Shown in pieces: positions 98-20,132 of a stretch of DNA of 62,930 bases; position 1 is the first letter of the stretch; every line of letters starts with the position of its first letter. The stretch comes from a virus (taxonomy: Duplodnaviria > Caudoviricetes). Below the pieces are notes generated by a model. That model saw nothing but the letters and a program-made list of their open reading frames with translations. It made no database searches and was not told where the DNA came from. A program made the translations under genes and the position numbers. The stretch covers positions 1-62,930 of the IMG/VR virus record IMGVR_UViG_3300009164_000073; one strand, given 5' to 3'.

Positions 98-173
98 GGT
101 AATATAGCATAGTGGCTAATGCAGTTGCTTCATACGCAGCCTATCGTTGGTTCGAGTCCAACTATTACCACCA
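98..173 (+). tRNA. tRNA-Met/Ile2 (CAT)
   Basis: Acceptor GGTAATA/TATTACC, anticodon loop TT-CAT-AC, T-loop TTCGAGT, encoded CCA. Met versus lysidine-Ile cannot be resolved by eye. Confidence 0.9.
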
Positions 174-174
174 A

Positions 175-370
175 GACGTTCCGAGTGTCGTCGGATACTG
201 TGACCCGCAGGATGAGAAGTAGTTTGACAACTACGGGTGGTTCTAGTCAAACCGAACTAGCGTTAGCGACACGAGAGTCTTCCCTGGTCGGGGAGCGGGT
301 GGAAGGTGAGGTCAGACTGGGGCAACCCGGGAAAGGATGCACTAAATTACCGCCGCAGGGAAGAAGCACC
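175..370 (+). ncRNA. GC-rich multi-pseudoknot structured RNA, unknown family
   Basis: Lies between two tRNAs. Hairpins TCCGA/TCGGA, GTAGTT/AACTAC and CTGGG-GCAA-CCCGG; long-range stem TCTTCCCTG(278-286)/CAGGGAAGA(356-364); several loop-complementary segments. Confidence 0.65.
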
Positions 371-377
371 TAATTCA

Positions 378-455
378 GGTCCCATAGTTCAGCCTGGCCT
401 AGAATAACTGCCTGTCACGCAGTAGACACGGGTTCGAATCCCGTTGGGACCGCCA
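378..455 (+). tRNA. tRNA-Asp (GTC)
   Basis: Cloverleaf GGTCCCA/TGGGACC, loop CT-GTC-AC, G discriminator, CCA. Confidence 0.95.
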
Positions 456-1295: not shown

Positions 1296-1919
1296 ATGAA
1301 ATTTGCATTTTTAAATCCAACTGTAATAGCATTAGATGATGTTCCACAGGATGTATTCGATAAACTGTATGATATGGTGCACCTAGCACACACGCATTCA
1401 GATCACGATGATTCAGGGAACCCACAGCTAAGTGTTAGAGGCGGACAGCAAATTCAATTAGTCCCTAACGAGTTTGGTCTAGATACTGATGTACTAAAAG
1501 ACTATATTGAAAAAATAGCACAAGAGTACTTAGATTCCATTCAACAACAAAATCCGTTGGTTAATCTTGCGTCAGTGAAACCTTTGTTGATCTCTGCTTG
1601 GACTATTAAACAAGGTCCAGGGGATTATCAAGCACTTCACAGTCACGAGTCGAACCTAAGCGGAAATATCTATATCGATGTACCAGTGTTGGAAAACGCT
1701 AAACCATCAGATAGTCAAATTGAATTCAAGTTACCAATGACCAAAGACATCGCTCATTTTATCTTTTCAGATAGTTGGAGATTCCACCCAGAGAAAGGCA
1801 AGATGATCGTGTTTCCAGGTCACATACCACACACCGTCTATCCGTGGAACGGACAAGGGCATAGAATTGTTTTAGCCTGGGATGTCCAATTAGTGGATAG
1901 AGCGGTTGACATTAAGTAA
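1296..1919 (+). CDS. putative 2OG-Fe(II) oxygenase (TIGR02466-like)
   Basis: HSH...LSGNIY...FPGHIPHTV...R pattern; GGAG RBS. Confidence 0.75.
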   Translation: MKFAFLNPTVIALDDVPQDVFDKLYDMVHLAHTHSDHDDSGNPQLSVRGGQQIQLVPNEFGLDTDVLKDYIEKIAQEYLDSIQQQNPLVNLASVKPLLISAWTIKQGPGDYQALHSHESNLSGNIYIDVPVLENAKPSDSQIEFKLPMTKDIAHFIFSDSWRFHPEKGKMIVFPGHIPHTVYPWNGQGHRIVLAWDVQLVDRAVDIK

Positions 1920-1934
1920 GAAATAACGTATAAT
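1906..1934 (+). promoter_or_regulatory. consensus sigma70 promoter
   Basis: TTGACA-17 nt-TATAAT, perfect consensus. Confidence 0.9.
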
Positions 1935-1940
1935 AAGTTT

Positions 1941-2200
1941 TGTTGTGTAGCAATACACAACCGGTGAAGCGAAAGGTAGAAGAGGATAGACACATAGGAA
2001 TGAGCTTCACGCTTACTCCGAAACTTACAATCCAACTTGAAACTGGATCGTGTTTATGTGTTCCGATCCCTAATAAACTGTCATTTGTTAATCGGAAATA
2101 TATGGACCTCTGTGTATTGTATTTTGCACGTTGTCAACGAAGATTATAACCCTTCATTGTATATTGTCCGGTCTATTACTTGACCTTTCGTAGATCCGTC
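1941..2200 (+). ncRNA. large pseudoknotted RNA at the 5' end of the rpoZ/DIP1984-like transcript
   Basis: Begins at the predicted TSS with GTTGTGTA-GCAA-TACACAAC. Long-range pairs GTGAAGC/GCTTCAC, CGAAAGGT/ACCTTTCG, AGAGG/CCTCT, ATAGAC/GTCTAT, ACACATAG/TTATGTGT, TTCCGAT/ATCGGAA. Confidence 0.65.
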
Positions 2201-2222
2201 ATTTTTAACACAAAGGAGCCCT

Positions 2223-2447
2223 ATGGCTAGGTATTGTTCGGACGAAGCAGCGAAAATGGTTGGCGGAAGATTTAACTTAGTCTTGGTGGCATCACAGAGA
2301 TCAAGAGAACTTAAAAATGGTTCAATGCAGAGAGTAGAAGGCAAAGATGCCACTACCAATGTAACCGCCTTGAGAGAAATCGAAGAAGGCAAATATACAT
2401 TTCAAGAATATTTAGACAAATTGCACAAGAAGGAAAGACAACTATGA
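2223..2447 (+). CDS. rpoZ: RNA polymerase omega subunit homolog
   Basis: MAR N-terminus, GRFNLVLVASQRSREL and TALREIEEGK match omega motifs; AAGGAG RBS. Confidence 0.85.
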   Translation: MARYCSDEAAKMVGGRFNLVLVASQRSRELKNGSMQRVEGKDATTNVTALREIEEGKYTFQEYLDKLHKKERQL

Positions 2448-3019
2448 ACATCTCTTTAAGAAAAGCCAGTGCGTTACAGAACGCAATCAATGATGCTATC
2501 AAAGGCATCAAGTTCAATCTGTCTGTTGAACTCAATGAGTTCCAGGACGTGGCAGAAGAACTAAAGAAAGCCAATGACGAGCTAATGACAAACGACACAC
2601 GTCGTCAGAAACTGCTGTTGGCATTGTACAACATCCGTGGATTGGTCGGCGCTGCTAATGCCAGCGCAGGTATCGATCTCAAGTTGGCAACTGCCGCATT
2701 CGTTGACAAACGTATTGCACAGTTGGAAACTATCGCTCAAGCAGAGCCACATACCGATCTTAAAGTGATCGCTGGCAAGTTGGACAAGATCCGAAATGAC
2801 AAGAGCGACACTGCTCGTAGCCGTATCTACGGTTACAGCGATACAGTATCAACCACTGTGGTTAGCAAAGAGCAGATCAGTGAAGCTAAGGCTGAGATTC
2901 AAAATCTCAAGAAGCAGAAGCAGAAGCTCAATGACGAAGTTCTTGAGTTAAACATCAAGACAGAAGTTCCTCTGACTGACGATGTGGTGGCAACACTACA
3001 AGCAGAAGGACTACTGTAA
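2444..3019 (+). CDS. coiled-coil protein, DIP1984/DUF6847-like
   Basis: All-helical pattern; motifs IR..V..AN and C-terminal KQKLNDEVLELNIKTEV resemble the DIP1984 family as recalled (not searched). Confidence 0.55.
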   Translation: MNISLRKASALQNAINDAIKGIKFNLSVELNEFQDVAEELKKANDELMTNDTRRQKLLLALYNIRGLVGAANASAGIDLKLATAAFVDKRIAQLETIAQAEPHTDLKVIAGKLDKIRNDKSDTARSRIYGYSDTVSTTVVSKEQISEAKAEIQNLKKQKQKLNDEVLELNIKTEVPLTDDVVATLQAEGLL

Positions 3020-3021
3020 TA

Positions 3022-3227
3022 GACCCCGGTTTACTCTTTTACGTTATAATAAGAGCGTCCCTGAAACGATAGAACAGGGGGTACACTAGGACCTGACCTC
3101 ACAGTCCCTCTTTAAGGGATACTGGAAACTGCCTAGGGTTAGGTTTAACACCTTCTCCAGAAGAACAAATGTTATGGACAGAGTAACCGCTCAGTCTAGG
3201 GCCTATGTGGTGTAGGTAGCTAGACAC
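3022..3227 (+). ncRNA. multi-hairpin/pseudoknot structured RNA, unknown family
   Basis: No ORF. Hairpins CTCTT/AAGAG, CCTG/CAGG, CAGT.CCCT/AGGG.ACTG, TAACA/TGTTA, GTCTAG..CCTATG/TGTAGG..CTAGAC, with complementary loops. Confidence 0.6.
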
Positions 3228-3362
3228 TTTATAAAAGCTCTTTGAAGTTTAACTACACTGGAAAAAGCGAGTAACTGCTAAGTCGACTACACAGTGAAAG
3301 TCTCCAGGAAGATACGGAGTTAGACAGTTTGGTTCGATTCCAACAGAGAGCCTCTATAAAGT
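3226..3362 (+). ncRNA. tRNA-like element with long closing stem and bulged T-arm (E3)
   Basis: ACTTTATAAAAGCTCTTT pairs with AGAGAGCCTCTATAAAGT; T-arm GTTTGG-TTCGATT-CCAAC lies immediately 5' of the closing strand; ends 3 nt before a tRNA. Confidence 0.6.
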
Positions 3363-3365
3363 TAT

Positions 3366-3440
3366 AGCGGGTTGGAGAAGAGGAATCTCGGGAGTCTCAT
3401 AAGCTCCAGATCGGCGGTTCGAATCCGTCACCCGCAACCA
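3366..3440 (+). tRNA. tRNA-Met (CAT), initiator-like
   Basis: 1:72 mismatch (A/A), purine11:pyrimidine24, loop CT-CAT-AA, CCA. Confidence 0.9.
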
Positions 3441-3443
3441 TTT

Positions 3444-3520
3444 CGGAGTGTAGCGCAGCCTGGTAGCGCACCTGGTTTGGGACCAGGGGGTCCAAGGTTC
3501 GAATCCTTGTACTCCGACCA
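3444..3520 (+). tRNA. tRNA-Pro (TGG)
   Basis: CGGAGTG/TACTCCG, loop TT-TGG-GA, CCA. Confidence 0.95.
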
Positions 3521-3538
3521 ATTACTAAAAGGACATAA

Positions 3539-3724
3539 ATGATCAACGAAGAAGATACAAGCAGTGAAGATGCACTAGCAGAGTTCTTAGCTAAGGGTGG
3601 TGTAATACAACAGTTAAAACCAAACCAAAGTGGCAGAGTCGATGGTGCAAGCTATTCTTCTTGGTCAAAGAAAAAACCTTCTGTAAGTCCTTTAGCCAGT
3701 CCTCCAGAGGATCAAGACAGTTAA
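3539..3724 (+). CDS. small hypothetical protein
   Basis: AAGGA RBS; AEFLAKGGVIQ motif typical of a small phage/bacterial protein family. Confidence 0.65.
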   Translation: MINEEDTSSEDALAEFLAKGGVIQQLKPNQSGRVDGASYSSWSKKKPSVSPLASPPEDQDS

Positions 3725-3744
3725 TTATTAAATAGAAGCACGAT

Positions 3745-3820
3745 GCGGGAATAGCTCAGCTGGTAGAGCGATACCTTGCCAAGGTATAGGTCGGGAGTTC
3801 GAACCTCCTTTCCCGCTCCA
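3745..3820 (+). tRNA. tRNA-Gly (GCC)
   Basis: GCGGGAA/TTCCCGC, loop TT-GCC-AA, U discriminator, CCA. Confidence 0.95.
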
Positions 3821-3829
3821 AAGGATAAT

Positions 3830-4396
3830 ATGAAAGTAATAGATCAAAATGATGTGTTTCGCAAATATGATTTTAGCTCAGTGATAACTGAAGCTGACAA
3901 TCAACAGGCAATGGACATTGTTCGAGATATCATAGGCAATGGCAATTACTTTCACAACAGTCCAAAATATCAAACTAAAGAAAACATATTCGCTAGACCA
4001 GAACCCGTTTGGTTAAAGTATAGAATGAGCTTTTTAATGAGTGTGTTTATGTATCTAGGCCGTGAAGTTAAAGTACACGATATGATGGCTTGGTCGTTTA
4101 TGACTAACCTAGCCACAGCAGAAGATCGTGATAAACTTTGGCATCACCATCACAAAAACGGAACCCATATGTTAAGTGGAGTCTTTTATCTACACATTCC
4201 ACCAGACGTAAAAGATCGTGACTATGCTGGAACAGAGATGGCTCCATTCGGTCCTACTCACGAAGAAAAGTTTTTTGTTCGTCCTACCGACAATGCTTGG
4301 TTGATATATCCTTCAAAGGAATGGCATCGTCCAGGCATTGTGCAAAGTGATCAATATCGCTTTATTCTTGCCGCTGACATTGTGATCGAACTATGA
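3830..4396 (+). CDS. putative 2OG-Fe(II) oxygenase
   Basis: WHHH...LSGVFY...YPSKEWHRP...R; start reassigned to the ATG after tRNA-Gly (AAGGA RBS). Confidence 0.75.
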   Translation: MKVIDQNDVFRKYDFSSVITEADNQQAMDIVRDIIGNGNYFHNSPKYQTKENIFARPEPVWLKYRMSFLMSVFMYLGREVKVHDMMAWSFMTNLATAEDRDKLWHHHHKNGTHMLSGVFYLHIPPDVKDRDYAGTEMAPFGPTHEEKFFVRPTDNAWLIYPSKEWHRPGIVQSDQYRFILAADIVIEL

Positions 4397-5100
4397 ACAT
4401 AGCGTGGACACTATATACAGACCCTAAGTATGCTGATGTCAGTCAGTGGAAAGACCTTGTCTACTTTGAACCAGAAGCTCTTTGGCCCTTGGTCATTGAA
4501 GAACGTGGGAGTGCCGATTATACAAAATGTCCGGCTGTTTCGGACTTCTTTGACAATGTATTTGTTATACGTTGCCCTTATGATGTTATAATAAGTTATC
4601 AGCAAGAAGGAGATATGTTTACTACAGATCGACTAGGACAGGATTGGTACAATCAAACGTTCTATCCAAGATTTCCAGTTGTTGATAAAAATGGTAATCT
4701 AGTCAGTTCTTGCATAACACTTCGCATCAATTATCTATTTGTTGCGGATGAGGACGTTGAAATTGAAACCTTCGATGTGCCTTTGCTCTCTAACAATTTA
4801 ACTAGAAACATAAAGATGATTCCGGGCAAGATGAATATACATCGCTGGGTACGGCCTGTGGACTTTACATTCGAAGTAGTAGACTTGACTAAGCCTATCG
4901 AACTAAAGCGTGGTGATCCAATGTTTGCTATCCGCTTTAAAACCGACAGTAAAGTCAAGTTGACTCACATAGACTACAGCGAAGATTTAAAACACGCTGC
5001 TGAAGCTTGTCTAGCTTCTAAGACCTATGTTCCACGCAAAAGCCTCAAGTACAGATACGAGATGGCCAAACGTTTTTTGAAAAATAAAAAATGGTTATGA
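4393..5100 (+). CDS. conserved phage protein (DUF6065-like beta-fold)
   Basis: CPAV...IPG...W.RP...KRGDPM pattern; ATGA overlap with the upstream gene. Confidence 0.6.
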   Translation: MNIAWTLYTDPKYADVSQWKDLVYFEPEALWPLVIEERGSADYTKCPAVSDFFDNVFVIRCPYDVIISYQQEGDMFTTDRLGQDWYNQTFYPRFPVVDKNGNLVSSCITLRINYLFVADEDVEIETFDVPLLSNNLTRNIKMIPGKMNIHRWVRPVDFTFEVVDLTKPIELKRGDPMFAIRFKTDSKVKLTHIDYSEDLKHAAEACLASKTYVPRKSLKYRYEMAKRFLKNKKWL

Positions 5101-5651
5101 AATATCGTATGGATTGTCCGTTTGTAATTGGACAGTTTGAAAAACACAGCGACTTAAAAGAACAGGTACTTTCTGCTATCAATAAAGCGGAAGCTGATCA
5201 TTTAGTTGAGCCAGAAGATAATATGGACATATCTAGGTGTGACTGGAGATTAGGTCGTTGGGATCACACTAGACCGTGGTTTCAATCACTGCAACCTCAT
5301 TGGCACGATCATATGACTGCTGTTAGCAAAGAACTCGGCTACGAGTTTTTTAGACTTAAAGAAATTTGGTTTCAACAGTATAATACAAATGCGCATCACG
5401 GGTGGCACGTACACGGTAGTAATTGGACCAATGTTTATTTTTTAGAAATGCCCGAAGACAGTCCTAAAACTCAATTTATCAATCCATTTAATCAAACAGA
5501 GATAGGAACATTTGAAATCAAAGAAGGTGACATATTAACCTTTCCTAGTTTTGTAGTTCATAGAGCACCGATCAATTTAAGCAATAATAGAAAGACTATT
5601 ATTTCTTGGAATATGGATACTGAAATTGCTCCAGGACTATATCAAGAATAA
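5091..5651 (+). CDS. putative 2OG-Fe(II) oxygenase
   Basis: WFQQY...HGWHVH...FPSFVVHRA...RKTIISWN. Confidence 0.8.
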   Translation: MVMKYRMDCPFVIGQFEKHSDLKEQVLSAINKAEADHLVEPEDNMDISRCDWRLGRWDHTRPWFQSLQPHWHDHMTAVSKELGYEFFRLKEIWFQQYNTNAHHGWHVHGSNWTNVYFLEMPEDSPKTQFINPFNQTEIGTFEIKEGDILTFPSFVVHRAPINLSNNRKTIISWNMDTEIAPGLYQE

Positions 5652-5652
5652 C

Positions 5653-5726
5653 GCGGGGTTGGCATATTGGTTGTGTCCCAGCCTTCCAAGCTGGTTAAAC
5701 GAGTTCGATTCTCGTACCCCGCTCCA
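5653..5726 (+). tRNA. tRNA-Gly (TCC)
   Basis: GCGGGGT/ACCCCGC, loop CT-TCC-AA, CCA. Confidence 0.95.
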
Positions 5727-5732
5727 AATAAT

Positions 5733-5807
5733 CTGGCGTTCGTTCAACGGATAGGACACGATTCTTCTAAAGTCGTTATAGGGGTTCGATTCCCTTACGC
5801 CGGACCA
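5733..5807 (+). tRNA. tRNA-Arg (TCT)
   Basis: CTGGCGT/ACGCCGG, loop CT-TCT-AA, CCA. Confidence 0.95.
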
Positions 5808-5818
5808 GTGTTAAAAAT

Positions 5819-5903
5819 GCGACTGTGGTGAAATAGGTAGACACAAGAGACTTAAAATCTCTCGCTTTCGGGCGTGCCGGTTCGATTCCGGCCAGTCGCA
5901 CCA
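5819..5903 (+). tRNA. tRNA-Leu (TAA)
   Basis: GCGACTG/CAGTCGC, loop CT-TAA-AA, variable arm, CCA. Confidence 0.95.
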
Positions 5904-5907
5904 TTTT

Positions 5908-5940
5908 GAAAGCCCTGCTGGTTGACAGGGCTTTCGTTTG
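5908..5940 (+). terminator. intrinsic terminator ending the tRNA cluster
   Basis: GAAAGCCCTG-loop-CAGGGCTTTC followed by GTTT. Confidence 0.7.
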
Positions 5941-5950
5941 ATTGTATAAT
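5922..5950 (+). promoter_or_regulatory. sigma70 promoter overlapping the terminator
   Basis: TTGACA-17-TATAAT. Confidence 0.85.
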
Positions 5951-5982
5951 ATATGTTAAATAAATGTTCTTAAGGAGTTGGT

Positions 5983-6234
5983 ATGATTAAAGAGTACGAA
6001 AGCATTCAAGGTGATAATTTAGAAGAAGCTGATATGGCTCAACTGCTATCAGTGACTGCTAATGCAGATGCTGTAGCACGAGTTCGAGCTGCCATTCCAA
6101 CAGGACCTAGCCAAAGCCATTGTGACGAATGCGGAGAAGAAATCCCAATGGCACGTCAAAAAGCAGTGCGTGGCTGTAAGACCTGCATTGACTGCCAAAA
6201 TCTACTAGATAGGATTAAGAAAAATTATGGTTGA
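5983..6234 (+). CDS. TraR/DksA C4 zinc-finger protein
   Basis: CDECGEEIP..RQ.AV.GC.TCIDCQ; N-terminal EEADMA acidic tip; AAGGAG RBS. Confidence 0.85.
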   Translation: MIKEYESIQGDNLEEADMAQLLSVTANADAVARVRAAIPTGPSQSHCDECGEEIPMARQKAVRGCKTCIDCQNLLDRIKKNYG

Positions 6235-6403
6235 TACTTTTTTAGCATTATGGTTAATGGCATTTGCTAATAATTCCTATAATGAAATGACAGCACTGCC
6301 TCCGGTGGTTAAAGTAGAGAAATTAACAGTACCAGCAGAATTGTATTATCCAGAGTTAACGGACAATATGTGGGATCCAAATTGGATTAACAAGAAAAGT
6401 TAA
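6227..6403 (+). CDS. small hypothetical protein (58 aa)
   Basis: ORF MVDTFLALWLMAF... overlapping the upstream stop; below the track's length cutoff. Confidence 0.5.
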   Translation: MVDTFLALWLMAFANNSYNEMTALPPVVKVEKLTVPAELYYPELTDNMWDPNWINKKS

Positions 6404-6422
6404 TCTGTGGCATCTTTACAAC

Positions 6423-6467
6423 ACCCCGTTAATTTTGGTTGACGGGGTTTTTGTTTGGCGTTATAAT
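6423..6467 (+). promoter_or_regulatory. terminator hairpin fused to a sigma70 promoter
   Basis: ACCCCGTTAA/TTGACGGGGT + TTTT; TTGACG(6439)-17-TATAAT(6462). Confidence 0.75.
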
Positions 6468-6473
6468 TATGGT

Positions 6474-6674
6474 ATGATAGAAGTAAAAAGTAAAACAAAA
6501 ACAGAAAAATTCGAAACACTAGCCCTTGCAATGACTTGGGCTAAGACTGTAGATGAGTTCGTAACCATTAATGTTAATGGTATGGAAATAGTAGGACGAT
6601 TTGGCGCTGACAGCATTGTCAACGGCAAGTGTCCAGATGGTGTAGATTACACCTGGAAAAAACGGAGAATATAA
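6474..6674 (+). CDS. hypothetical protein (probably leaderless)
   Basis: ATG 6 nt after the -10 box; MIEVKSK... Confidence 0.6.
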   Translation: MIEVKSKTKTEKFETLALAMTWAKTVDEFVTINVNGMEIVGRFGADSIVNGKCPDGVDYTWKKRRI

Positions 6675-7186
6675 TGCCTTGGATTGAAAACATACCGTTG
6701 GAAAATGTAGCAAAAGGTCAACATCACGATTGCGGGGCTAACAGTATGCTGATCCAAATTTCGGATCACGATATGGCTTTTCCTACACCAAAGCATACAT
6801 TCAAAGAAGTGCATCAGTTTACTTTTTTGGATATTGAAGAAGACGGTATGACCAATACCGGCGGTGGTATGATTGACCTCAGCGAGTTTGCTATTACAGA
6901 TGAACAGGCTGCAGAACTTGTTCGCTTGCTACAACACGCAATGGAAAATCGTATGAACGTAGTGGTTCATTGCCACGCAGGTATCTGCCGTAGTGGTGCA
7001 GTCTGTGAAGTTGGGGTTATGCTGGGTTTTGGAGACTGTGAACGATTCCGAGCACCTAACCTGCTAGTCAAGCATAAAATGATGCGGGTACTTGGTTGGA
7101 CTTACGACAGCGAAGAAAAGTCCTATGATGTACACGGTACGACAAACGAGTGGGGTTTCATCACTCCAAACAAAGCGATTGACTAA
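6674..7186 (+). CDS. protein-tyrosine-phosphatase-like (CX5R) protein
   Basis: VVHCHAGICRSGA P-loop; GGAG RBS before MPWIENIP. Confidence 0.8.
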   Translation: MPWIENIPLENVAKGQHHDCGANSMLIQISDHDMAFPTPKHTFKEVHQFTFLDIEEDGMTNTGGGMIDLSEFAITDEQAAELVRLLQHAMENRMNVVVHCHAGICRSGAVCEVGVMLGFGDCERFRAPNLLVKHKMMRVLGWTYDSEEKSYDVHGTTNEWGFITPNKAID

Positions 7187-7207
7187 TTAACTGTTTGATG
7201 CTATAAT
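7179..7207 (+). promoter_or_regulatory. sigma70 promoter
   Basis: TTGACT-17-TATAAT with extended TG. Confidence 0.8.
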
Positions 7208-7234
7208 TGTATATTAAACAGTGAAAGGCATAAA

Positions 7235-7405
7235 ATGGCTGGCAAAGCGAAATCGGTTTACCTAACAGTGACAACAATGGATCACAAATCAGTTTTCCAT
7301 CGTATGTTTTTCAATGCAAAAGAATTCAACGAGTTTGTTAAAACTGATGAGTTCAAAGCAAAGTACCCAACAACAGAATTTAAAATTGTAAAAGAAGTTT
7401 ACTAA
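7235..7405 (+). CDS. small hypothetical protein (56 aa)
   Basis: AAAGG RBS, MAGKAKSVYLTV...; not in the track. Confidence 0.6.
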   Translation: MAGKAKSVYLTVTTMDHKSVFHRMFFNAKEFNEFVKTDEFKAKYPTTEFKIVKEVY

Positions 7406-7420
7406 AGAAAGGAGGCGAGT

Positions 7421-8026
7421 ATGCCAAGTGTATTCTTAGTAAGCGATACACACTTTGGACACTCAGGTGTATGTCGCTTCACCCGCAATGACGGGTCAAA
7501 ATTGCGTCCGTGGACAGATCCAGATGAAATGGACGAAGCAATGATTTTAGCCTGGAACGAGCGAGTCAAGCCCACTGACAAGGTCTATCATTTGGGCGAT
7601 GTTGTCATTAACCGTAAGGCTATGAAAACATTGGCTCGACTGAACGGTGATAAAGTATTGATCCGCGGTAACCACGACATCTTTAGAGATGACGAATATC
7701 GCGAATACTTTAGAGAGTTGCGAGCTTATCACGTTATGAACGGTATGATCTTGAGTCATATTCCAGTACATAGCGACAGCTTGGGGCGTTTTGGAGTTAA
7801 CATTCACGGACACTTGCACAGTAATCGTGTTAAGAAACCCCGAGGAGTGGACGCTAAAACAGGAGAAATCTTGTATAGCGATCAAAACGATGTGCGTTAT
7901 CACTGCGTTTGCGTAGAGCAAACACCGGACTTTGCACCTATCTTGTTTGAAGATGTTATCAAACGCATCGAAGCAGAAGGCGGATCAGTTGGATTTAGGA
8001 ACGGAAACGGACCTACAGTGGATTAA
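7421..8026 (+). CDS. calcineurin-like metallophosphoesterase
   Basis: SDTHFGH, HLGD, GNHD, SH.P and HGHLH motifs. Confidence 0.9.
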   Translation: MPSVFLVSDTHFGHSGVCRFTRNDGSKLRPWTDPDEMDEAMILAWNERVKPTDKVYHLGDVVINRKAMKTLARLNGDKVLIRGNHDIFRDDEYREYFRELRAYHVMNGMILSHIPVHSDSLGRFGVNIHGHLHSNRVKKPRGVDAKTGEILYSDQNDVRYHCVCVEQTPDFAPILFEDVIKRIEAEGGSVGFRNGNGPTVD

Positions 8027-8040
8027 ACTGCGTAGTTTTA

Positions 8041-8066
8041 ATAGGGCCTTAGGGCCCTATTTTTTT
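8041..8066 (+). terminator. intrinsic terminator
   Basis: ATAGGGC-CTTAGG-GCCCTAT + T run; followed by a TAAATA late-type motif at 8075. Confidence 0.75.
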
Positions 8067-8112
8067 GGCTGGCATAAATATATTGAATACCTTACATCCA
8101 GGAGTTTTAGAT

Positions 8113-9741
8113 ATGCCATTACAGATTCGCAGAGGCCTTGACGCGGAAAGACTAGCCCTAACGCCAGCTACAGGCCTAGCACAAGGCGAACTAGTCTATG
8201 TTACAGACTCAAAACGTCTTTACATAGGAACCGGTTCAGCAGGCGAGCATCAAGGCGTTGCTATTACTGGTTATACCAACGAGGACGCACAGGATGCGGC
8301 CGCTGGACTTTTTACCGCTACTACAACTAGCGGTACTACAAATACTAACATTTCATTTGCCTACAACGATTCAGCAAATAAAGTAGTAGCCACAGTTGAC
8401 CTTACCGCATTAGGCACTAACATCGGTCTTAACGGTCATACAATTACAGGTAACGGTAGCATTACTATCAGCGGACTTGTTACAGCAGACCTAAAAGGTT
8501 CTGTTGCAGGTGACGACTCAGTGCTGCTAGTAAACGGTGCCGATTCAACGGTTAACCTAAGCGAAACTATTGTTGCAGATGTTAAACCAAGAATTAACTT
8601 TTCGCCAAATCTAGGAGCAACATCAAGAAGATTCAATGCTCTATTTGTTAGCGGAACAGGTGGTGTTGACGTAGGCGGTGCACTTATCACTGGTACTGGC
8701 GGCATACTTAATCTACCAGCTGGTTCATTAATTAATGGCCGTCCTATCACTCCAATAGACGGTGCGTTTACGGTACTAGATATCAAAGGCTCTGTGTTCG
8801 GTGATGATTCTACACTGCTAGTCGATTCTGTGGCAGGCACCATCAAAGGTGCTGTGGACAGTACTACAGTCAAAGCTAGTTCGTATGTGCAATCTCCATT
8901 AATAAATGCAGGTAGTCTTACACAGAATGGCGTGTTCAATGTTTATAATACTACAGACTTTTTTGGAACATTCTTTACCATAACAACATCTGGTCCCGGA
9001 GCTTTCCTAGATTTCCACGCTTCGAGAGGAACCCTTGCTTCACCTGCTGCATCACAAAATAATGATTACATCAGTGGTATTCTTTTAAAAGGACATAACG
9101 GAACTGCCTATGTACGTGCTGCGGCAGTTGTTGCTCTAGCAGACGGTAATGTCGTTAACGGTGAAGTTCCTGGAAAAGTTGTTATTTCTACTAAGAACTA
9201 TGCAGGTACTTTAGACAATTCATTCACGTTTAACAGTCGCGGAGTATTCGAAGCTCCGGTAATTAAACATACACCATTCGCAGATGCTACTGCACGTGAT
9301 GTGGGTATGAATGCTGGTGCTGGTATGATAGTATATAATACAGCACTTGGCCAATTCCAAGGTTACACATCAGGTTGGTACAGTGTATTAACTTCTGACA
9401 AGATTGGTTATACTACAGGTGTTGGTGGCGCAGTTACACAGATTAATACCAAAGCAACATCAGTTACACTAAACAAGATTTCTGGACAGATTACCTCTCA
9501 TACAGAATCCCTAGCAGGTAATGCCACTGTTATTTTTGATGTTCTAAATAGCACTGTATCACAAACAGATACTATCATTATTAATATGAAATCTTCAGGA
9601 TCAAATATTGGACAGTATCAATGCTGGATCGCTTCTATTGGTAATAACACATTTACGGTTGCTCTAAGAAATATGAGTGGAAGTCCGCTCGCAGAAGCAG
9701 TGACAATGAACTTTGCTGTAATTAAAGCTGTTGCAGCTTAA
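8113..9741 (+). CDS. tail fibre / virion structural protein
   Basis: MPLQIRRG...GELVYVTD..RLYIG N-terminus typical of phage fibres; Gly/Thr-rich beta repeats; GGAG RBS. Confidence 0.75.
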   Translation: MPLQIRRGLDAERLALTPATGLAQGELVYVTDSKRLYIGTGSAGEHQGVAITGYTNEDAQDAAAGLFTATTTSGTTNTNISFAYNDSANKVVATVDLTALGTNIGLNGHTITGNGSITISGLVTADLKGSVAGDDSVLLVNGADSTVNLSETIVADVKPRINFSPNLGATSRRFNALFVSGTGGVDVGGALITGTGGILNLPAGSLINGRPITPIDGAFTVLDIKGSVFGDDSTLLVDSVAGTIKGAVDSTTVKASSYVQSPLINAGSLTQNGVFNVYNTTDFFGTFFTITTSGPGAFLDFHASRGTLASPAASQNNDYISGILLKGHNGTAYVRAAAVVALADGNVVNGEVPGKVVISTKNYAGTLDNSFTFNSRGVFEAPVIKHTPFADATARDVGMNAGAGMIVYNTALGQFQGYTSGWYSVLTSDKIGYTTGVGGAVTQINTKATSVTLNKISGQITSHTESLAGNATVIFDVLNSTVSQTDTIIINMKSSGSNIGQYQCWIASIGNNTFTVALRNMSGSPLAEAVTMNFAVIKAVAA

Positions 9742-13313: not shown

Positions 13314-14162
13314 ATGGAACGATATAAGGTAGCCCCAACATACGAAGAACACTGGTTAGAGACAGATAGACCTCAACCACTATCCGACACAAGAATAGAA
13401 ACTGTTATACAAGGTATTCTAGATGGTCGGTTAGGTATGGATATTACTGATAAAGTTTATACTGATTTTAAAAAAGAAACCAGCGATTGGATTTTTAATA
13501 CTCAACTAAACAGCCTAACCGGGTTTGATTCATTTAATCGATTAGATATTACCCAAGGCTGTACACAGTTTATTGACACTATCTATATGAAAGGTCCCGT
13601 CCAGGTGTTACAGGGTGATTATAAGTATCATCATAGATTAGGCAACTGGGGACGAACCGTTGGCAATCTATCTGCTAATATTCCACTAATCATAGCAATG
13701 CCCTTTCCTAGCACAGGATCGGTACACACTCAAATGGAGGATATATTGAATGAATGTTTGGACAAAAAGATTGAAGTACATATCGACGGCGCTTGGATCA
13801 GTTGCTGTCGTGATATTGATTTTGATTTTAGTAATGATGCTATTAGATCCGTTGGCATCAGTCTTAGCAAAGGTCTTGGTCTCGGCTGGAACCGCGTAGG
13901 ACTTAGGTGGACAAAAGACGACAAGCCAGATGCAATTACTTTAATGAATGATTTTAGAATGAACCTTAGAGCAGTATCAATGATTGGCTTACATTTTATA
14001 AGAAATTTCCCCAGTGATTACCTATGGACAACCTACGGTGATATCTACCATAAAGTCTGCAAAGATTTTAATCTGACTCCTACCAAGAGTATACATCTTG
14101 CACTTAGAAACGGTCAAGCCGTTGGCATTAGCCCATTAATAAGATATGCCTCAAACAATTAA
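13314..14162 (+). CDS. PLP-dependent fold-type I enzyme (paralog of 10277..11176)
   Basis: VHIDGAW, SLSKGLG, RVGLR; shares QGCTQ.ID with its paralog. Confidence 0.7.
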   Translation: MERYKVAPTYEEHWLETDRPQPLSDTRIETVIQGILDGRLGMDITDKVYTDFKKETSDWIFNTQLNSLTGFDSFNRLDITQGCTQFIDTIYMKGPVQVLQGDYKYHHRLGNWGRTVGNLSANIPLIIAMPFPSTGSVHTQMEDILNECLDKKIEVHIDGAWISCCRDIDFDFSNDAIRSVGISLSKGLGLGWNRVGLRWTKDDKPDAITLMNDFRMNLRAVSMIGLHFIRNFPSDYLWTTYGDIYHKVCKDFNLTPTKSIHLALRNGQAVGISPLIRYASNN

Positions 14163-15414
14163 TCCACCAACATTTTGTATGCACCCATTTACTGGGCTTG
14201 CTACTAGAGAAGACGGCGCAATACAGGTATGTTGTCGTAGCCATCCTATTGGTAATATAAAAGATAACACCCTGGAAGAGATCTGGAACGGAGACAATAT
14301 GAAACGTATCCGTAAGCAAGTGCTCACAGGGTATCGACCAAAGGAGTGTGAGCCCTGTTTTAGTTTAGAAGACCAAGGTGTTGAAAGTTTACGGCAACGA
14401 CACGTACTTGGAAAAATCCCAGAGGCACGGATTAATTTATATCCCAATGCCGTTAGTACAATGCGTAAAGATCATACAATGCCGTTTGAGATTCCTACTA
14501 TGGAACTTAAACTTAATAACTTATGTAATTTAAAATGTCGTATGTGTCATCCGGGGGATAGTACCGCTTGGAATGATTGGGCAGAAGTTAAAGAGTTTTA
14601 CAAAGGTGAAGGGCAGGTTATATTCGATATCGTTGAAGAACACAATTTAGAAAAGAAACCGTTACTAGATAAGTTTGAAGATAATCCCAATTGGTGGATT
14701 AGTTTAGAAAAGAACTTACCCTACTTCCGACGTGTGGAATTCGCAGGAGGCGAGCCTCTAATGGATCCGCAACACTTTCGAATATTAGATATGCTTGCTC
14801 CGTATGGTGATCAAATTGAAATCAAATATGCCACTAACTTAACCACGCTAGGTAAGAGCAATCGCACAGTTTGGCAATACTGGCCTAAATTTAAATCAGT
14901 AGCGGTAAATGTAAGTATTGACGGTATTGGCACTAGCTATGAATACATTCGCGGCAATGCCAGCTGGGCTGAACTTATAAACAACATTAAACAAATACAA
15001 ACTATTCCAAATATTAGTCGCATTGTGGGAGCAGTGGCTGTGCAGGTCAGTAACATTCTCATACTTGACAAAATGATAGAATATTTTTTAAACGATTTAG
15101 GTATTGTATTTTATACTAATATGGTACAATATCCCAACGTATTATCTGCACAAGTTATTCCTAACGAATTAAAATCAATAGCTATTATTCGTTTAAAAGA
15201 TGTTAGGGAATTAGTTCCGACTTTTAAATTAGTAAAAGAACATCCGATGTTAGAAGAGCTAACTTACAAACAAATCGACGGCATAATTAATTTCATCCTA
15301 GCAAAGGATAATACCCACTTGTGGAATGATTGCATAGAGTATAACCGTCGATTAGATGTCACAAGAGAACAGAGTTTCTTTGATGTAACTCCAGAGTTTA
15401 AACCCTATGTTTAA
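14146..15414 (+). CDS. radical SAM protein with N-terminal twitch/SPASM-like domain
   Basis: CNLKCRMC, AGGEP, SIDG; N-terminal FC.HP...CC...C..C. Confidence 0.9.
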   Translation: MPQTINPPTFCMHPFTGLATREDGAIQVCCRSHPIGNIKDNTLEEIWNGDNMKRIRKQVLTGYRPKECEPCFSLEDQGVESLRQRHVLGKIPEARINLYPNAVSTMRKDHTMPFEIPTMELKLNNLCNLKCRMCHPGDSTAWNDWAEVKEFYKGEGQVIFDIVEEHNLEKKPLLDKFEDNPNWWISLEKNLPYFRRVEFAGGEPLMDPQHFRILDMLAPYGDQIEIKYATNLTTLGKSNRTVWQYWPKFKSVAVNVSIDGIGTSYEYIRGNASWAELINNIKQIQTIPNISRIVGAVAVQVSNILILDKMIEYFLNDLGIVFYTNMVQYPNVLSAQVIPNELKSIAIIRLKDVRELVPTFKLVKEHPMLEELTYKQIDGIINFILAKDNTHLWNDCIEYNRRLDVTREQSFFDVTPEFKPYV

Positions 15415-16303
15415 AGTTACCAGTGCTTGGCCGCATCAGGATCAATTAAAGGTTGAATGGAATCTTGGCAAAAGGTGCAACTACGATTGTACATATTGTC
15501 CGGCAAGCATACACGATCACCATAGCCCTCATACTGACATAAATTTGTTGGAGGCAACTGTAGATAAACTGTGTGCGATTGGTAAGCCATTGCGCATTAG
15601 CCTAACAGGAGGCGAACCTTGTGTACACCCGGACATTGAAGACTTATTAGAATACTTTAGACGCAAAGATGTGTTCTGGGTAAATTTGACAACTAACGGT
15701 ACACGCCCCAGTAACTGGTACCTACAAAATGAGATGTTTTTCAACCACTTAGTGTTCAGTCTGCATTTCGAACACGATTGGGAACGGGTGCATAGAAATA
15801 TCATACAGTACCAGGCAGGGACTCAAACAGATTTCTTTGTCAATGTTATGGCACATCATAAACATATGGACAGTGTTCGCAAGGTAGTTAAAGAGTACAG
15901 CGATCGTGGAATAAAATATGCTGTTAGGCGTATTCGATGGACTGACGGCGACCACAATATATTTGATGATTTAAAATATGAAGGTAAAGATCTTGAATGG
16001 ATACTGAATCAAGATTCTACTGTAAAACCCAATTGTAGGATAGATGAGTCAGAAATAATGCACAGTAACGATGTTATTAAAAAACATTTAAATCAATTTA
16101 AAGATTGGTCTTGCAACGCCGGACTCGAAAGTCTTATGATAAATTGGGACGGTGATGTTCATCGTGCGACCTGTAGAGTCGGTGGCAGTCTAGGTAACAT
16201 TTATAAAGGTAGCTTTGTTGTTCCTAGCAACCCCATTGTATGTACTAGAGACTGGTGTACCTGTGCTGCAGATATTCCATTAACAAAAATTAAAAATGAT
16301 TAA
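15407..16303 (+). CDS. radical SAM protein, C-terminal SPASM/twitch
   Basis: CNYDCTYC, TGGEP, TTNG; C-terminal C..G...C...C.C. Confidence 0.9.
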   Translation: MFKVTSAWPHQDQLKVEWNLGKRCNYDCTYCPASIHDHHSPHTDINLLEATVDKLCAIGKPLRISLTGGEPCVHPDIEDLLEYFRRKDVFWVNLTTNGTRPSNWYLQNEMFFNHLVFSLHFEHDWERVHRNIIQYQAGTQTDFFVNVMAHHKHMDSVRKVVKEYSDRGIKYAVRRIRWTDGDHNIFDDLKYEGKDLEWILNQDSTVKPNCRIDESEIMHSNDVIKKHLNQFKDWSCNAGLESLMINWDGDVHRATCRVGGSLGNIYKGSFVVPSNPIVCTRDWCTCAADIPLTKIKND

Positions 16304-17402
16304 AACTACCGCAATTAGACTGCTAAATCCTACAGCAATGTCGGTTACCTGGGATACTGGTCGCAGATGCAACTACGATTGTACATATTGTGAATCAACA
16401 AGACACGACTTAAAAAGTTCATATCACAGTTTTGAAGAACTTAAAAATACATATCATTTTATCAAAGAGTGGACCACAGAATACAATAGCAGACGAAAAG
16501 AAAACAAAGGAGTTAACATTGTGTTCACTGGCGGTGAACCAACAATTAATCCTAATTTCTGGAACCTTGTAGAATATATTAAAAACGATAGCGACAATTT
16601 TAATTTACAATTAACTACTAACGGTACTTGGGGCCCTAGTTATAGAGAAAAAATATTAAAATATCTCGACTGTGTTACTATCAGTTGGCACGCCGAAGGA
16701 CCGGCTAATCTCAAGCAACGAGCCATAGATAACATATTACATCTAAGCAACAGTGAAATCGTATTGCAGGTTAATCTTATGCTACACGCTGATCACTGGG
16801 ATGAAGCTATGGACGTCTGCAAGTTGCTAGATGACAATAATGTAAAGTATAATCCTAGACCAATTGGAGATGGAAACATAACTCGAGTTGGGTGGTTTAT
16901 CGATGCCGATGGCACTAATCGCAGAACATCTCATACCTATAGTAAAGAACAGCAAGAATGGTTTTTTAAAAAAATGGGAAGTAGTTTGCCTGGGTCTGAA
17001 AAAGCAGAAGGTAACCAATTAGGACGTGGGTGTTGTGGAGGTCGCTGCCTCGAAGCAAAAGTAGACGACCAGTGGCAAACTGTTAAGTTAGTTAATACTG
17101 AATTTAAAGGTTGGCAATGTATGGTTGATTGGTTTTTCCTACACATCGATCAACATACAGGACTAGTCTATCATCATCAAACCTGTCAGGCATTGCATAA
17201 TCAAAAAAGAGGAGCACTAGGACATCTAGACGATAAAGGACAAATGCTAACTGATCTTAAATTAAGATTAGAAAATCCTAGTCCTATTATTTGTCCCAAT
17301 CAAAGATGCGGGTGTGGAATGTGTGTTCCTAAGGCACGGGATCCTGTAGATTTTAAAATTATGTGGCAGGCGCTAACAGATGTGCCAGCTCAGGAAATGT
17401 AG
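16296..17402 (+). CDS. radical SAM protein, Cys-rich C-terminus
   Basis: CNYDCTYC, TGGEP; GCCGGRC and CPNQRCGCGMC. Confidence 0.9.
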   Translation: MIKTTAIRLLNPTAMSVTWDTGRRCNYDCTYCESTRHDLKSSYHSFEELKNTYHFIKEWTTEYNSRRKENKGVNIVFTGGEPTINPNFWNLVEYIKNDSDNFNLQLTTNGTWGPSYREKILKYLDCVTISWHAEGPANLKQRAIDNILHLSNSEIVLQVNLMLHADHWDEAMDVCKLLDDNNVKYNPRPIGDGNITRVGWFIDADGTNRRTSHTYSKEQQEWFFKKMGSSLPGSEKAEGNQLGRGCCGGRCLEAKVDDQWQTVKLVNTEFKGWQCMVDWFFLHIDQHTGLVYHHQTCQALHNQKRGALGHLDDKGQMLTDLKLRLENPSPIICPNQRCGCGMCVPKARDPVDFKIMWQALTDVPAQEM

Positions 17403-18789
17403 ATTTAAAATCTGTGCCGCGCTGATTATCCATTACTGTAATATATTCTCTAAAATCGGGTAACAAATGAGTATGGTCTTGAGCATCCATCCAATCTAGT
17501 ATACCTTCCCAGCGTTTCCAACCATAGGGATTTTTTTCCCAAAAATCTGCATCTTGAGTATAGTTATCCCATAACCAGTCTTGCAATTCAGCAAACAGTT
17601 TACGAACTTCGAATTTATCTTCCTTAGGCAGCACACGTAAACTTAACCACGTAGGAATCCACAATAAATGAACACTGGCTAATCCGCCACCGGTAACCTG
17701 TCCTGCAACATTTAATTCAAAATTTAATTTTTTAAATCCGCTTCGGACTTTCCATTTAAGCAATTCGGGTATATGTTTTATATTCAGTATTTGCGCTGCC
17801 AATTCAATAGTGGTAGTAATATTATCAGGAGTGTTCTCTAATCTATGCAAATTTTTCTCTACAACATTAAAATCCATCGGATAGCGAATGTAATTTACAC
17901 GATCCCCAATTCCATCAAGACTTACTGCAAATTTAACTTTTCTAAAATGCTTCCATATATTAATGATAGTTTCATCTATTAAGATTCCATTAGAATTATA
18001 TCTAAGAAGTATTTTATCAGCATAGCCCCTACGAATTATTTCTTCAAGAAATATTTTGTGTTCTTTAATTAAAAGAGGCTCACCGCCAGCAAAGTATATT
18101 TGCTTTAAGTTTGGAATCTGGTTGTATATATCGTTCCAAAAAGATGGATGTTCGTACCAATAGTTGTTGAACTCTTTTTGTTCCCAGAACATTTGATTTT
18201 TTATCTGAGAACTTTGAAAAATAGGAAATACTTTTTTGTGCTCTGGAACCCACATTGAACTATCGTGCGGACTACACATAATACATTTTAGATTGCAGGT
18301 ATGACCTAATCGTAAATCTAGATACTCTAACTTATAAGGAACAGTGCCGTCTTCTTCAGTATTATTAACTAGTTCGGGAATATTAGCATTTTCAGTTTTA
18401 AACCACGTAACTGTTTCCCAAATCCTCTTACTAGCGATCTCAGACTCTTCTTCATCGAAACATTTCTTACAACTTGCAGGAATTTTTCCCTCGAGCATAG
18501 TTGTTCTAACAGACTTCATATAGTTATTATTAAATGCACCCGCCGGCGTATCTTTGCCGAAGTTAGTTGGAGTACCATCTTCTTTTTTTACAAGGCCTAC
18601 TCCGTAGTCACCGGTATCTGCTCCACTGGCGTTTGCTACACAGCACAGTCGAGCATCGCCGTTTGGCCTTGTTGCTAGGTGATTCCACGGCAGCACACAA
18701 AAAGATTTTGACCCAGACAGGTCTTCAATAACTTTTTGCCATTTACCTATTTCGGTTGTTTCAGGTTGAATCCAGTATACATCTTTCAT
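17359..18789 (-). CDS. radical SAM protein with N-terminal twitch-like domain
   Basis: CNLKCIMC, AGGEP, SLDG; start set at MKDVYW. Confidence 0.9.
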   Translation of the reverse strand: MKDVYWIQPETTEIGKWQKVIEDLSGSKSFCVLPWNHLATRPNGDARLCCVANASGADTGDYGVGLVKKEDGTPTNFGKDTPAGAFNNNYMKSVRTTMLEGKIPASCKKCFDEEESEIASKRIWETVTWFKTENANIPELVNNTEEDGTVPYKLEYLDLRLGHTCNLKCIMCSPHDSSMWVPEHKKVFPIFQSSQIKNQMFWEQKEFNNYWYEHPSFWNDIYNQIPNLKQIYFAGGEPLLIKEHKIFLEEIIRRGYADKILLRYNSNGILIDETIINIWKHFRKVKFAVSLDGIGDRVNYIRYPMDFNVVEKNLHRLENTPDNITTTIELAAQILNIKHIPELLKWKVRSGFKKLNFELNVAGQVTGGGLASVHLLWIPTWLSLRVLPKEDKFEVRKLFAELQDWLWDNYTQDADFWEKNPYGWKRWEGILDWMDAQDHTHLLPDFREYITVMDNQRGTDFKSTFPELAHLLAPAT

Positions 18790-18829
18790 AATAGTAATTA
18801 TGTCTATATAACTGCCGCTAAATATTTCT

Positions 18830-19327
18830 ATGTTATACAAAGGTAATTTTTCAAATATTTTTGAGCCCGAGGCATTGCAATTTATTCTTGCAAATCAAGG
18901 GGACCTTCGCCCGCAGACTAATATCGATAGTTACCAATTGGATAATTTCGGGAAGTGGAAATCTGCTGGGTATGATATGAACAAAATACGTTGGGAAGTA
19001 TTTTCCGGAGATACACCTAAATTTAATTTTAAAATATCTCTGCCATTCAAAGGAACGATCAAATGGTGGTTTGCAAAACTACATCCAGGCGATATGTTTC
19101 CGTTACATTTAGATACGTTTCCGGATAATACAAATGTAAGACGATATTGGATAGCCTGTCAAGATTATATACCTGGACATATTTTTGCCTACGATGATAA
19201 AATTTTAACAGGATATAAAGCTGGTGATATTTTTATGTTCGATCACAGCACTGTGTTACACGGATCTGCTAATATAGGATTTACTCCTAAGATATCTTTA
19301 CAGGTTGCTGTTACAGATGATCAGTAA
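18830..19327 (+). CDS. 2OG-Fe(II)/AspH-like oxygenase
   Basis: PG.MFPLHLD...HGSANIG..PK. Confidence 0.7.
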   Translation: MLYKGNFSNIFEPEALQFILANQGDLRPQTNIDSYQLDNFGKWKSAGYDMNKIRWEVFSGDTPKFNFKISLPFKGTIKWWFAKLHPGDMFPLHLDTFPDNTNVRRYWIACQDYIPGHIFAYDDKILTGYKAGDIFMFDHSTVLHGSANIGFTPKISLQVAVTDDQ

Positions 19328-20103: not shown

Positions 20104-20132
20104 ATTGATATTTACCACATAAATATCGCACT

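Follow-up and report, generated by a model that had tools for sequence, protein, structure and literature searches.

The stretch of DNA considered here is the complete IMG/VR record IMGVR_UViG_3300009164_000073, 62,930 bases from an uncultivated giant lake phage (Duplodnaviria; Caudoviricetes), which we call the window; its estimated completeness of 17% makes it a fragment of a very large phage. It holds an array of 14 transfer RNA (tRNA) genes, all on the + strand (ARAGORN), and inside that array, on the same strand, lies the subject of this paper: a structured RNA that runs from its first conserved base to a tail reading AGCA (174..368; our covariance model, R1, matches it at 175–372). On one side of it is tRNA-Met (CAT; 98..173, +; ARAGORN, and 65.1 bits with the Rfam tRNA model), whose encoded CCA ends at 173 and so leaves a gap of 0 nucleotides (nt); on the other is tRNA-Asp (GTC; 378..455, +; ARAGORN, and 65.9 bits with Rfam), which starts 9 nt past the tail. 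Elsewhere in the window's array, the spacers between tRNAs are ordinarily 3–11 nt. A second contig (L016) has a copy identical to the window's, and there the array is extended upstream by 13 further tRNAs.

A first-pass annotation, made from the letters of the sequence, had put a GC-rich RNA with several pseudoknots between these two tRNAs and had read it as compact, tertiary folded and possibly a ribozyme or an unnamed class. The placement was exact, and the region is indeed GC rich (0.555 at 201–400, against about 0.33–0.45 in most later 200-base windows). All the complementary segments it listed are present as well: GTGTCG (185–190) with CGACAC (267–272), ACCC (203–206) with GGGT (235–238) and TTGAC (224–228) with GTCAA (246–250), and in the 3' domain, TCTTCCCTG (278–286) with CAGGGAAGA (356–364), GCGG (295–298) with CCGC (350–353) and a GCAA loop (322–325). 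Do such complementarities make a fold, or are they chance? This one sequence, taken alone, gives no case for structure beyond chance: the + strand has a minimum free energy of −61.6 kcal/mol (z = +0.52), with 134 of 200 shuffles folding equally well, and the minus strand has z = +0.44.

Secondary structure and pseudoknots

It is the relatives that make the case. We tested a structure of 55 base pairs on 91 distinct sequences, using as controls the same pairs with their partners slid by 1–3 columns. A standard pair forms in 97.1% of 4972 cells (38.2–46.1% in the slid controls), the covariation score is 0.392 (0.041–0.081), and none of 500 shuffles matched the observed percentage paired. Changes on both sides of a pair—the compensatory changes in homologs on which the first-pass annotation had made its reading depend—occur in 29 of the 55 pairs, against 9–21 in the slid controls. 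An independent prediction by RNAalifold recovered most of these helices, and 24 of its 44 pairs are compensated. Many pairs are G-U and would be C-A mismatches if read on the other strand (for example, in 86 of 91 rows at pair 198-289), which places the RNA on the + strand, where all of the parts described below lie. About 60 of the roughly 200 alignment columns are invariant and about 40 are nearly so, some of them forced by the search pattern.

What, then, does the molecule look like? The alignment points to a compact fold of two domains, a 5' domain of five hairpins and a long, irregular 3' arm. The CGU of the 5' leader, AGACGU (174..179), does not vary in any of the 92 aligned rows. In the main subtype, it pairs with a downstream ACG to form helix P1 (pairs 4-169, 5-168 and 6-167), the first of these pairs being formed in 82 of the 91 rows and unpaired in nine, the window among them. 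The window copy belongs to a minority subtype, in which helix P6 is nine pairs long and P1 is largely lost. Hairpin H1 (180–184 with 191–195, loop 185–190) has two-sided changes in five of five pairs and is paired in 99.6% of cells; hairpin H2 (198–202 with 206–210, loop ACC at 203–205) is paired in 100% of them, its closing pair being C-G in 51 rows and G-C in 39. The conserved joining strand that follows, GAUGAGAA (211..218), is invariant in the main alignment, though it was part of the first search pattern, and loci found without constraining it carry variants such as GAAGGAGAAG and GAUAAGAAG. Beyond hairpin H3 (219–223 with 230–234, two-sided changes in three of five pairs) comes a second joining strand, GGGUGGUU (235..242), of which 235–238 take part in pseudoknot 1 and 239–241 probably in pseudoknot 2. 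Hairpin H4 (243–247 with 256–260, loop CAAACCGA) has two-sided changes in four pairs, its strands reading CUAGU/ACUAG in the window and GUCUU/AAGGC in most relatives. Hairpin H5 (261–263 with 271–273) has a near-invariant loop of seven bases that looks like a T-loop; its third pair is C-G in 80 rows and U-A in 11.

The 3' arm is closed by P6 (278–286 with 356–364), the helix that the first-pass annotation had put at the base of its second domain, and the strand pairs of the relatives speak for it: the eight core pairs are all formed in 16 of 16 parsed loci of the window's subtype, and in those 16 loci, they are formed by 13 different kinds of strand pair (CCACGGTG/CACCGTGG is one). Two further pairs (289–290 with 354–355) come before P7 (295–298 with 350–353), the GCGG/CCGC pairing of the same annotation, where covariation is again seen, the second pair being C-G in 75, U-A in 9 and A-U in 7 of the 91 rows. 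Next are a conserved internal loop (299–304/344–349); P8 (305–308 with 340–343), which also covaries and has a purine-rich internal loop beyond it; and a distal hairpin (317–321 with 326–330). The GCAA loop of this hairpin is present as annotated, but it lies in the most variable part of the family. Tandem internal loops of the G-A type are found in the arm, and after P6 there is a single-stranded 3' tail, AGCA (365..368): G188–A194 of row 1 of the alignment are at least 90% conserved, and the sequences diverge after AGCA. The 5' end and this conserved tail lie side by side at the junction of the two domains.

The distal arm is variable, and both it and the site after 242 take extra modules in some members. 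About one-tenth of the members have an additional 25–70 nt between the conserved GGGUGGU strand and H4; those with an insert after the strand equivalent to 235–242 are L100, L112, L119, L131, L152, L155, L186, L089, L091 and L173. Four others (L117, L174, L175 and L159) have the distal arm replaced by another module, which they have in common.

Pseudoknot 1 joins the H2 loop and its closing base (ACCC, 203–206) to GGGU (235–238), as the first-pass annotation had suggested. Finding this combination in 91 of 91 rows is uninformative, because the first search pattern had fixed the letters. An independent scan fixed a partner strand of the GGAC type and left H2 free; it gave 19 stretches, 16 of them members and 3 chance matches, and the H2 loop of those members has GUCC in 16 of 16 and ACCC in 0 of 16. 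Across 131 distinct 5' domains, ACCC goes with GGGU in 122, GUCC with GGAC in seven and AUCC with GGGU, by a wobble pair, in one; the one domain left over is that of a partial copy and was not parsed. Between the clades, then, two of the four pairs differ on both strands, and since this difference is probably a single evolutionary event, we would call the evidence for pseudoknot 1 good, not overwhelming. For pseudoknot 2, between GGU (239–241) and ACC (251–253) in the H4 loop, the case is a plausible one: the strands are invariant in the main clade, and in clade 2, they are replaced by complementary letters of opposite polarity, in a register that is ambiguous. (An earlier assignment of ours for the two pseudoknot partners was reversed once clade 2 was found.) The other two loop pairings of the first-pass annotation fared less well. 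GTGTCG/CGACAC is not conserved in the family, its inner two pairs being formed in 8 and 11 of the 91 rows and the whole in at most 8. TTGAC/GTCAA is partly compatible, its three central pairs being formed, with wobbles allowed, in 82, 90 and 89 of the rows and its outer pairs in 6 and 14 of 91, and two of the three central columns are also claimed by H4.

Relatives and genomic setting

How large is the family? R1, built from 92 sequences, matches the window once, at 175–372 (151.8 bits, E 7.6e-50), and matches at least 193 other fetched IMG/VR loci with 62.6–234 bits. Four weaker matches (15–26 bits) each lie beside a strong match in the same locus, and R1 matched none of the loci that lack the element, the seven chance pattern matches among them. 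By a regular-expression count, there are at least 136 distinct 220-base versions in at least 181 loci. One locus (L240) has a second, partial copy at 972–1224 on the minus strand (25.7 bits) alongside the full one, in which the 5' leader, H1 and H2 are kept almost letter for letter before the sequence diverges; this is a duplicate in decay or else another RNA that reuses the 5' module. L262 and L228 each have one weak second match of 15–17 bits.

These relatives came from several kinds of scan. The D-arm of the orthologous tRNA-Met led to 71 loci, 14 of them with a homologue at 72–85% identity, mostly elsewhere in the array. A 5'-domain pattern run over viral contigs gave at least 120 matches, a 3'-domain pattern added at least 54 loci whose 5' domains diverge more, and two further scans brought out the second clade. 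The same 5'-domain pattern had 0 matches in 185,579 prokaryotic species, one genome each, although it is strict enough that divergent cellular copies could escape it, and blastn of the window copy or of a main-type member against 50,697 GenBank phage records gave no match. The members are 186–268 nt long, in steps that are not multiples of three, so the region is non-coding. Host contigs among the matches listed reach 524,565 bases, many of them exceeding 300 kb. All members so far come from tRNA gene arrays, in uncultivated phages that are mostly very large.

Not every such phage has it. Loci anchored on the neighboring 2OG-Fe(II) oxygenase had no copy (two near-identical contigs start past the element's site), and taking together the loci anchored on the orthologous tRNA-Met or on the oxygenase, the element is in 14 of 84. 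In one relative, at about 52% protein identity, the slot between the orthologues of tRNA-Met and tRNA-Asp is taken by a tRNA-Ala. The element is in 0 of 5 records of related large phages, of which two are estimated to be 100% complete, and because of this absence, we regard it as an accessory gene, inessential to these phages.

We counted the context of 97 distinct copies, 2.5 kb to each side. There is a tRNA within that distance in 93 of the 97, and 1006 of 1006 such tRNAs share the strand of the element. In 52 copies, a tRNA ends no more than 5 nt ahead of the first conserved base (the gap is 0 nt in 37 and 1 nt in 8, and there is an overlap of 1 in 4), and nine tRNA species occur immediately upstream; the other 45 copies have no tRNA so near. 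On the downstream side, a tRNA starts within 15 nt of the tail in 31 copies, 23 of these within 5 nt, and 21 of the 97 abut on both sides. Around one-fifth of the copies, by an informal count made in the sequences, precede an open reading frame (ORF), not a tRNA. No protein partner emerged when 2729 neighboring ORFs were clustered: no family occurs in most element loci, and the commonest is in 36 of 125. The commonest families (a phosphoesterase, a phosphatase, an RNase H-like protein and an HNH endonuclease) are present with and without the element; for the two phosphatase families, the counts are 31 and 18 in arrays with it vs 15 and 13 in arrays without.

Three metatranscriptome libraries, each from a different study, contain contigs that match the window without a difference, at 26–340, 96–221 and 176–303. 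This is compatible with transcription, and the evidence is weak because DNA may be present in RNA libraries. Four RNA runs left several bins of 309–440 uncovered, which says nothing about expression. The contig at 176–303 (run X17) has the element letter for letter, preceded by a different tRNA 3' end, so close strains differ in what stands before the RNA.

Some other features of the window deserve mention. Two spacers in the same tRNA array, 1–97 and 562–669, are long, and each is closed by a long AU-rich stem, in which CAUAU...AACA near the start is matched with UGUGUUUC.AUAUG near the end; the first also has a T-arm-like hairpin around 68–85. In many other loci, the element is followed directly by modules that have a closing stem of this kind, and nhmmer found one and two matches, respectively, to the two spacers among the fetched loci. 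They may be further RNA classes. Between tRNA-Val and tRNA-Ser is an ORF of about 46 codons with a ribosome-binding site (762–902), and the stretch 746–904 was found by nhmmer in six other fetched loci. From 1296 to 8026, protein genes are interleaved with tRNAs: three paralogous 2OG-Fe(II) oxygenase genes (1296–1919, 3776–4396 and 5091–5651), a dual-specificity-phosphatase-like gene (6629–7186) and a calcineurin-like phosphoesterase (7421–8026), and members of both phosphatase families are found again near tRNA arrays in related phages, whether or not the RNA is present. Farther on, five radical-SAM genes, two with SPASM domains, are clustered at 14146–25487, unusually many for a phage. Of the ORFs at 8065–9741 and 39039–48827, one has an N-terminal major-tropism-determinant domain of the Mtd_N type, as in the targets of diversity-generating retroelements, and the other is 3262 codons long. 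In cultivated phages, the protein encoded at 31508–32707 is clearly matched only by Pseudomonas jumbo phages of the PA5oct group (41% identity across 61% of the query) and by phages that infect other Proteobacteria, no more than a hint that the host may be a Gram-negative bacterium.

Possible roles of the RNA

What might such an RNA be for? To the reading we prefer, we would give about one chance in two: that this is a stable RNA, excised from a tRNA precursor of the phage and acting in trans, on tRNA or on translation. It would be transcribed within a polycistronic tRNA precursor, and the endonucleases that mature the tRNAs on either side would release it, with one cut directly after the upstream CCA and a second, made by RNase P, where the next tRNA begins. 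Once free, it would persist in the infected cell and act there on the machinery of tRNA or of translation. So many invariant, unpaired bases suggest a specific partner, and our best guess is that invariant unpaired strands would dock onto a tRNA or a tRNA-handling factor; the motifs concerned are two GGGUGG strands, the T-loop-like loop and the tandem G-A loops.

Several things weigh against this. The trans role and the docking are guesses from context and from a reading of those unpaired motifs; assembled contigs show neither the ends of an RNA nor its strand; and the 0-nt abutment to CCA in 37 of the 97 copies would equally fit an RNA that cleaves itself. Since 45 of the 97 have no tRNA within 5 nt upstream, tRNA processing alone cannot set every 5' end, and the copies (about one-fifth, informally counted) that stand before an ORF instead of a tRNA are no help either. 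A more adventurous idea, which we offer tentatively and think somewhat unlikely, is that the family is a new natural RNA that is catalytic or recognizes tRNA ends, either a new ribozyme fold that cuts precisely after the CCA of the preceding tRNA or a device that captures the NCCA ends of tRNAs through its two invariant UGG-containing strands.

The first half of that idea can be put more narrowly, and we take it as unlikely, though the main rival: the RNA would be a cis-acting, self-cleaving ribozyme, larger than the theta ribozymes and of a new fold, that cuts its own 5' end after CCA and frees the 3' end of the tRNA. The gap to CCA (exactly 0 in 37 of 97 and no more than 5 nt in 52, with nine tRNA species upstream) is what one would want to see, and the 5' end and unpaired 3' tail would meet at the P1/P6 junction beside other invariant unpaired bases, in an RNA with dense invariant nucleotides for its size. 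Theta ribozymes are described as neighbors of viral tRNAs, and the same role, freeing tRNA 3' ends, has been proposed for them. Against all of this stand the absence of any match to an Rfam ribozyme family at E ≤ 10, the 45 of 97 copies with no tRNA close upstream and, weakly, the RNA-library contigs that cross the junction between tRNA and element. There is also a chemical difficulty. Self-cleavers leave a 2',3'-cyclic phosphate, which on A76 would block charging until it was healed; the tRNAs here encode their CCA, and a cyclic phosphate at that place would be awkward. Calcineurin-like phosphoesterases and dual-specificity phosphatases are types of enzyme able to heal RNA ends, and one of each is encoded in the tRNA region of the window, where the two could be RNA end-healing enzymes; however, both families are equally common near arrays that lack the element (31 vs 15 and 18 vs 13).

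Could the RNA be something more passive, a rigid spacer that helps the tRNAs fold or presents sites for RNase P, RNase E or RNase Z? Its strictly tRNA-array context would suit such a module, as would the other long, closed-stem spacers of the array (1–97 and 562–669) and the modules that recur after the element in other loci; in our reading, the T-loop-like H5, which immediately precedes the pairing partner of the 5' end, also echoes the T-arm/acceptor order of a tRNA. We nonetheless hold this to be decidedly unlikely. The invariant columns (about 60, plus about 40 nearly invariant, of about 200, some forced by the pattern), kept while the helices diverged, together with a pseudoknotted fold retained between clades, amount to far more constraint than a spacer needs, and related phages with the same arrays manage without the element.

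Quite improbable, in our view, is a cis-regulatory sensor, a riboswitch or T-box-like element controlling read-through to the downstream genes of the array. The two invariant GGGUGG strands, each with UGG plus one base beside a helix, recall the T-box motif; the arm has its tandem G-A-type loops; and some copies are upstream of ORFs. But the T-box and riboswitch models of Rfam find no match, no alternative terminator/antiterminator pairing is seen in the alignment, and the base after UGG does not track the discriminator base of the adjacent tRNA. Moreover, a tRNA starts within 15 nt of the tail in 31 of 97 copies (within 5 nt in 23), which leaves no space for an expression platform and makes a riboswitch-like role unlikely.

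ROOL and GOLLD form RNA-only cages, and one might imagine a miniature counterpart here, a small, self-assembling RNA scaffold with the same genomic niche and no conserved protein neighbor. We think this very improbable for an RNA three to four times smaller than either. The first eight bases are palindromic in the main-subtype consensus; we considered the palindrome as a dimerization site and rejected it, for it is not kept in the window copy or in several clades.

That there is no functional RNA at all, only chance complementarity or the remnant of one or two decayed tRNA genes, is refuted by the covariation across 91 distinct sequences, the sharply delimited family of full-length R1 matches in relatives (62.6 bits or more) and the pseudoknot covariation between clades, even though the single sequence folds no better than its shuffles and the relative at about 52% protein identity has a tRNA-Ala in the same slot; neither ARAGORN nor the Rfam tRNA model finds anything in 174–377, and a tRNA or pseudo-tRNA identity was rejected because no cloverleaf was found, the conserved structure being six helices plus pseudoknots.

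Giant phages carry dozens of tRNA genes, for reasons still debated. At least some 200 examples of an RNA with many invariant bases, a pseudoknotted fold and a habit of abutting tRNA 3' ends suggest that selection on these arrays extends beyond the tRNAs themselves. If the RNA were a ribozyme or a binder of tRNA ends, its fold would be a new one, tied to a defined biochemical activity, and giant phages would own an RNA-based control of tRNA maturation or availability. It is small enough for crystallography, cryo-EM and in vitro cleavage or binding assays, and the alignment supplies a covariation-tested secondary structure on which to base their design.

Comparison with known RNA families

Does this RNA already have a name? 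Rfam 15 at its gathering thresholds returns only the 14 tRNAs from the window, and at E ≤ 10 on 150–400, only two minus-strand chance matches to eukaryotic families. A main-type member (L177) gave no match. An insertion-type member (L100), one of the three tested, gave 7.6 bits (E = 2.2) with the 5' part of RNase P class A, for which the gathering score is 100; we judged this likeness coincidental, as the matched letters are in P6, whose sequence covaries freely in other members. The check that the first-pass annotation had proposed, against GOLLD, ROOL and HDV-like families, thus yielded no named family in three members, and the models of hatchet, twister, glmS, T-box, transfer-messenger RNA (tmRNA), RNase P, Y RNA-like and group I intron RNAs, all in Rfam 15, gave no match near the gathering score. 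ARAGORN found no tmRNA in the window, nor did the Rfam tmRNA model. We found no description of this RNA in the literature, with the proviso that a 2023 study that predicted 8,495 candidate structured RNAs from IMG/VR (PMC10690425) might list the motif in its supplementary tables. Covariation, the pseudoknot and the lack of an Rfam match together uphold what was the core of the first-pass annotation, a compact RNA of an unnamed class, probably with a tertiary fold, in a phage tRNA cluster.

By position, the closest analogues are the rnaC and rnaD genes of phage T4 (species 1 and 2), likewise stable RNAs of a tRNA cluster, of unknown role and on the tRNA strand. T4 rnaD is annotated as starting 1 nt after tRNA-Arg, which matches the 0-nt abutment of the present RNA. 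The resemblance ends there: the T4 RNAs are 139 and 119 nt and stand at the end of their cluster, the best R1 score in that cluster is 3.7 bits with filters off, and there is no likeness of sequence or structure. In our reading, one of the T4 RNAs has a tRNA-like T-arm and the other ends in CCA, whereas the present family has neither.

ROOL and GOLLD, encoded by phages and prophages, often near tRNA islands, have several pseudoknots and are of unknown function and protein partner, and many GOLLD members exceed 800 nt; as to the niche, the background given in the first-pass annotation agrees. The niche is shared, 93 of 97 copies of the present RNA having tRNAs within 2.5 kb. The size is not: the members, at 186–268 nt, are three to four times smaller and have no Rfam match to either family, so that "ornate," the word first applied to this RNA of about 195 nt, overstates it.

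Theta ribozymes, too, had been invoked at the outset, and correctly as regards their place directly beside phage tRNA genes, where they are described as tied to tRNA maturation. The position immediately 3' of a tRNA is one that the present RNA occupies as well, with a gap of 0 in the window and of 5 nt or less in 52 of 97 copies. The fold, however, is another. No HDV-family match was found at E ≤ 10, the supported structure (six helices plus a long arm) is not the nested double pseudoknot of the HDV-like ribozymes, and the host phages show long ORFs under the standard bacterial code. Theta ribozymes are compact nested double pseudoknots of well under 100 nt.

Two cellular RNAs complete the comparison. 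T-box leaders, about 200 nt long, have T-loop-like hairpins, an internal loop of the G-A type and, next to a helix, a strand with UGG plus one base; in our reading, the present RNA shares all of this. In the leaders, the four-base motif pairs with the NCCA end of tRNA. The present RNA differs in having no Rfam T-box match, no specifier loop and no terminator/antiterminator switch, and it sits inside tRNA arrays, whereas T-box leaders are upstream of genes for aminoacyl-tRNA synthetases or amino acids. Bacterial RNase P RNA is also structured and tRNA related, a likeness that otherwise consists of the one faint match.

The RNA, then, belongs to none of the T4 rnaC/rnaD, ROOL/GOLLD or theta families and forms a new class, unnamed in Rfam 15, among the structured RNAs of unknown function in phage tRNA islands. 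It is a third, unrelated kind of such RNA still without a function, alongside T4 species 1 and 2 and ROOL and GOLLD.

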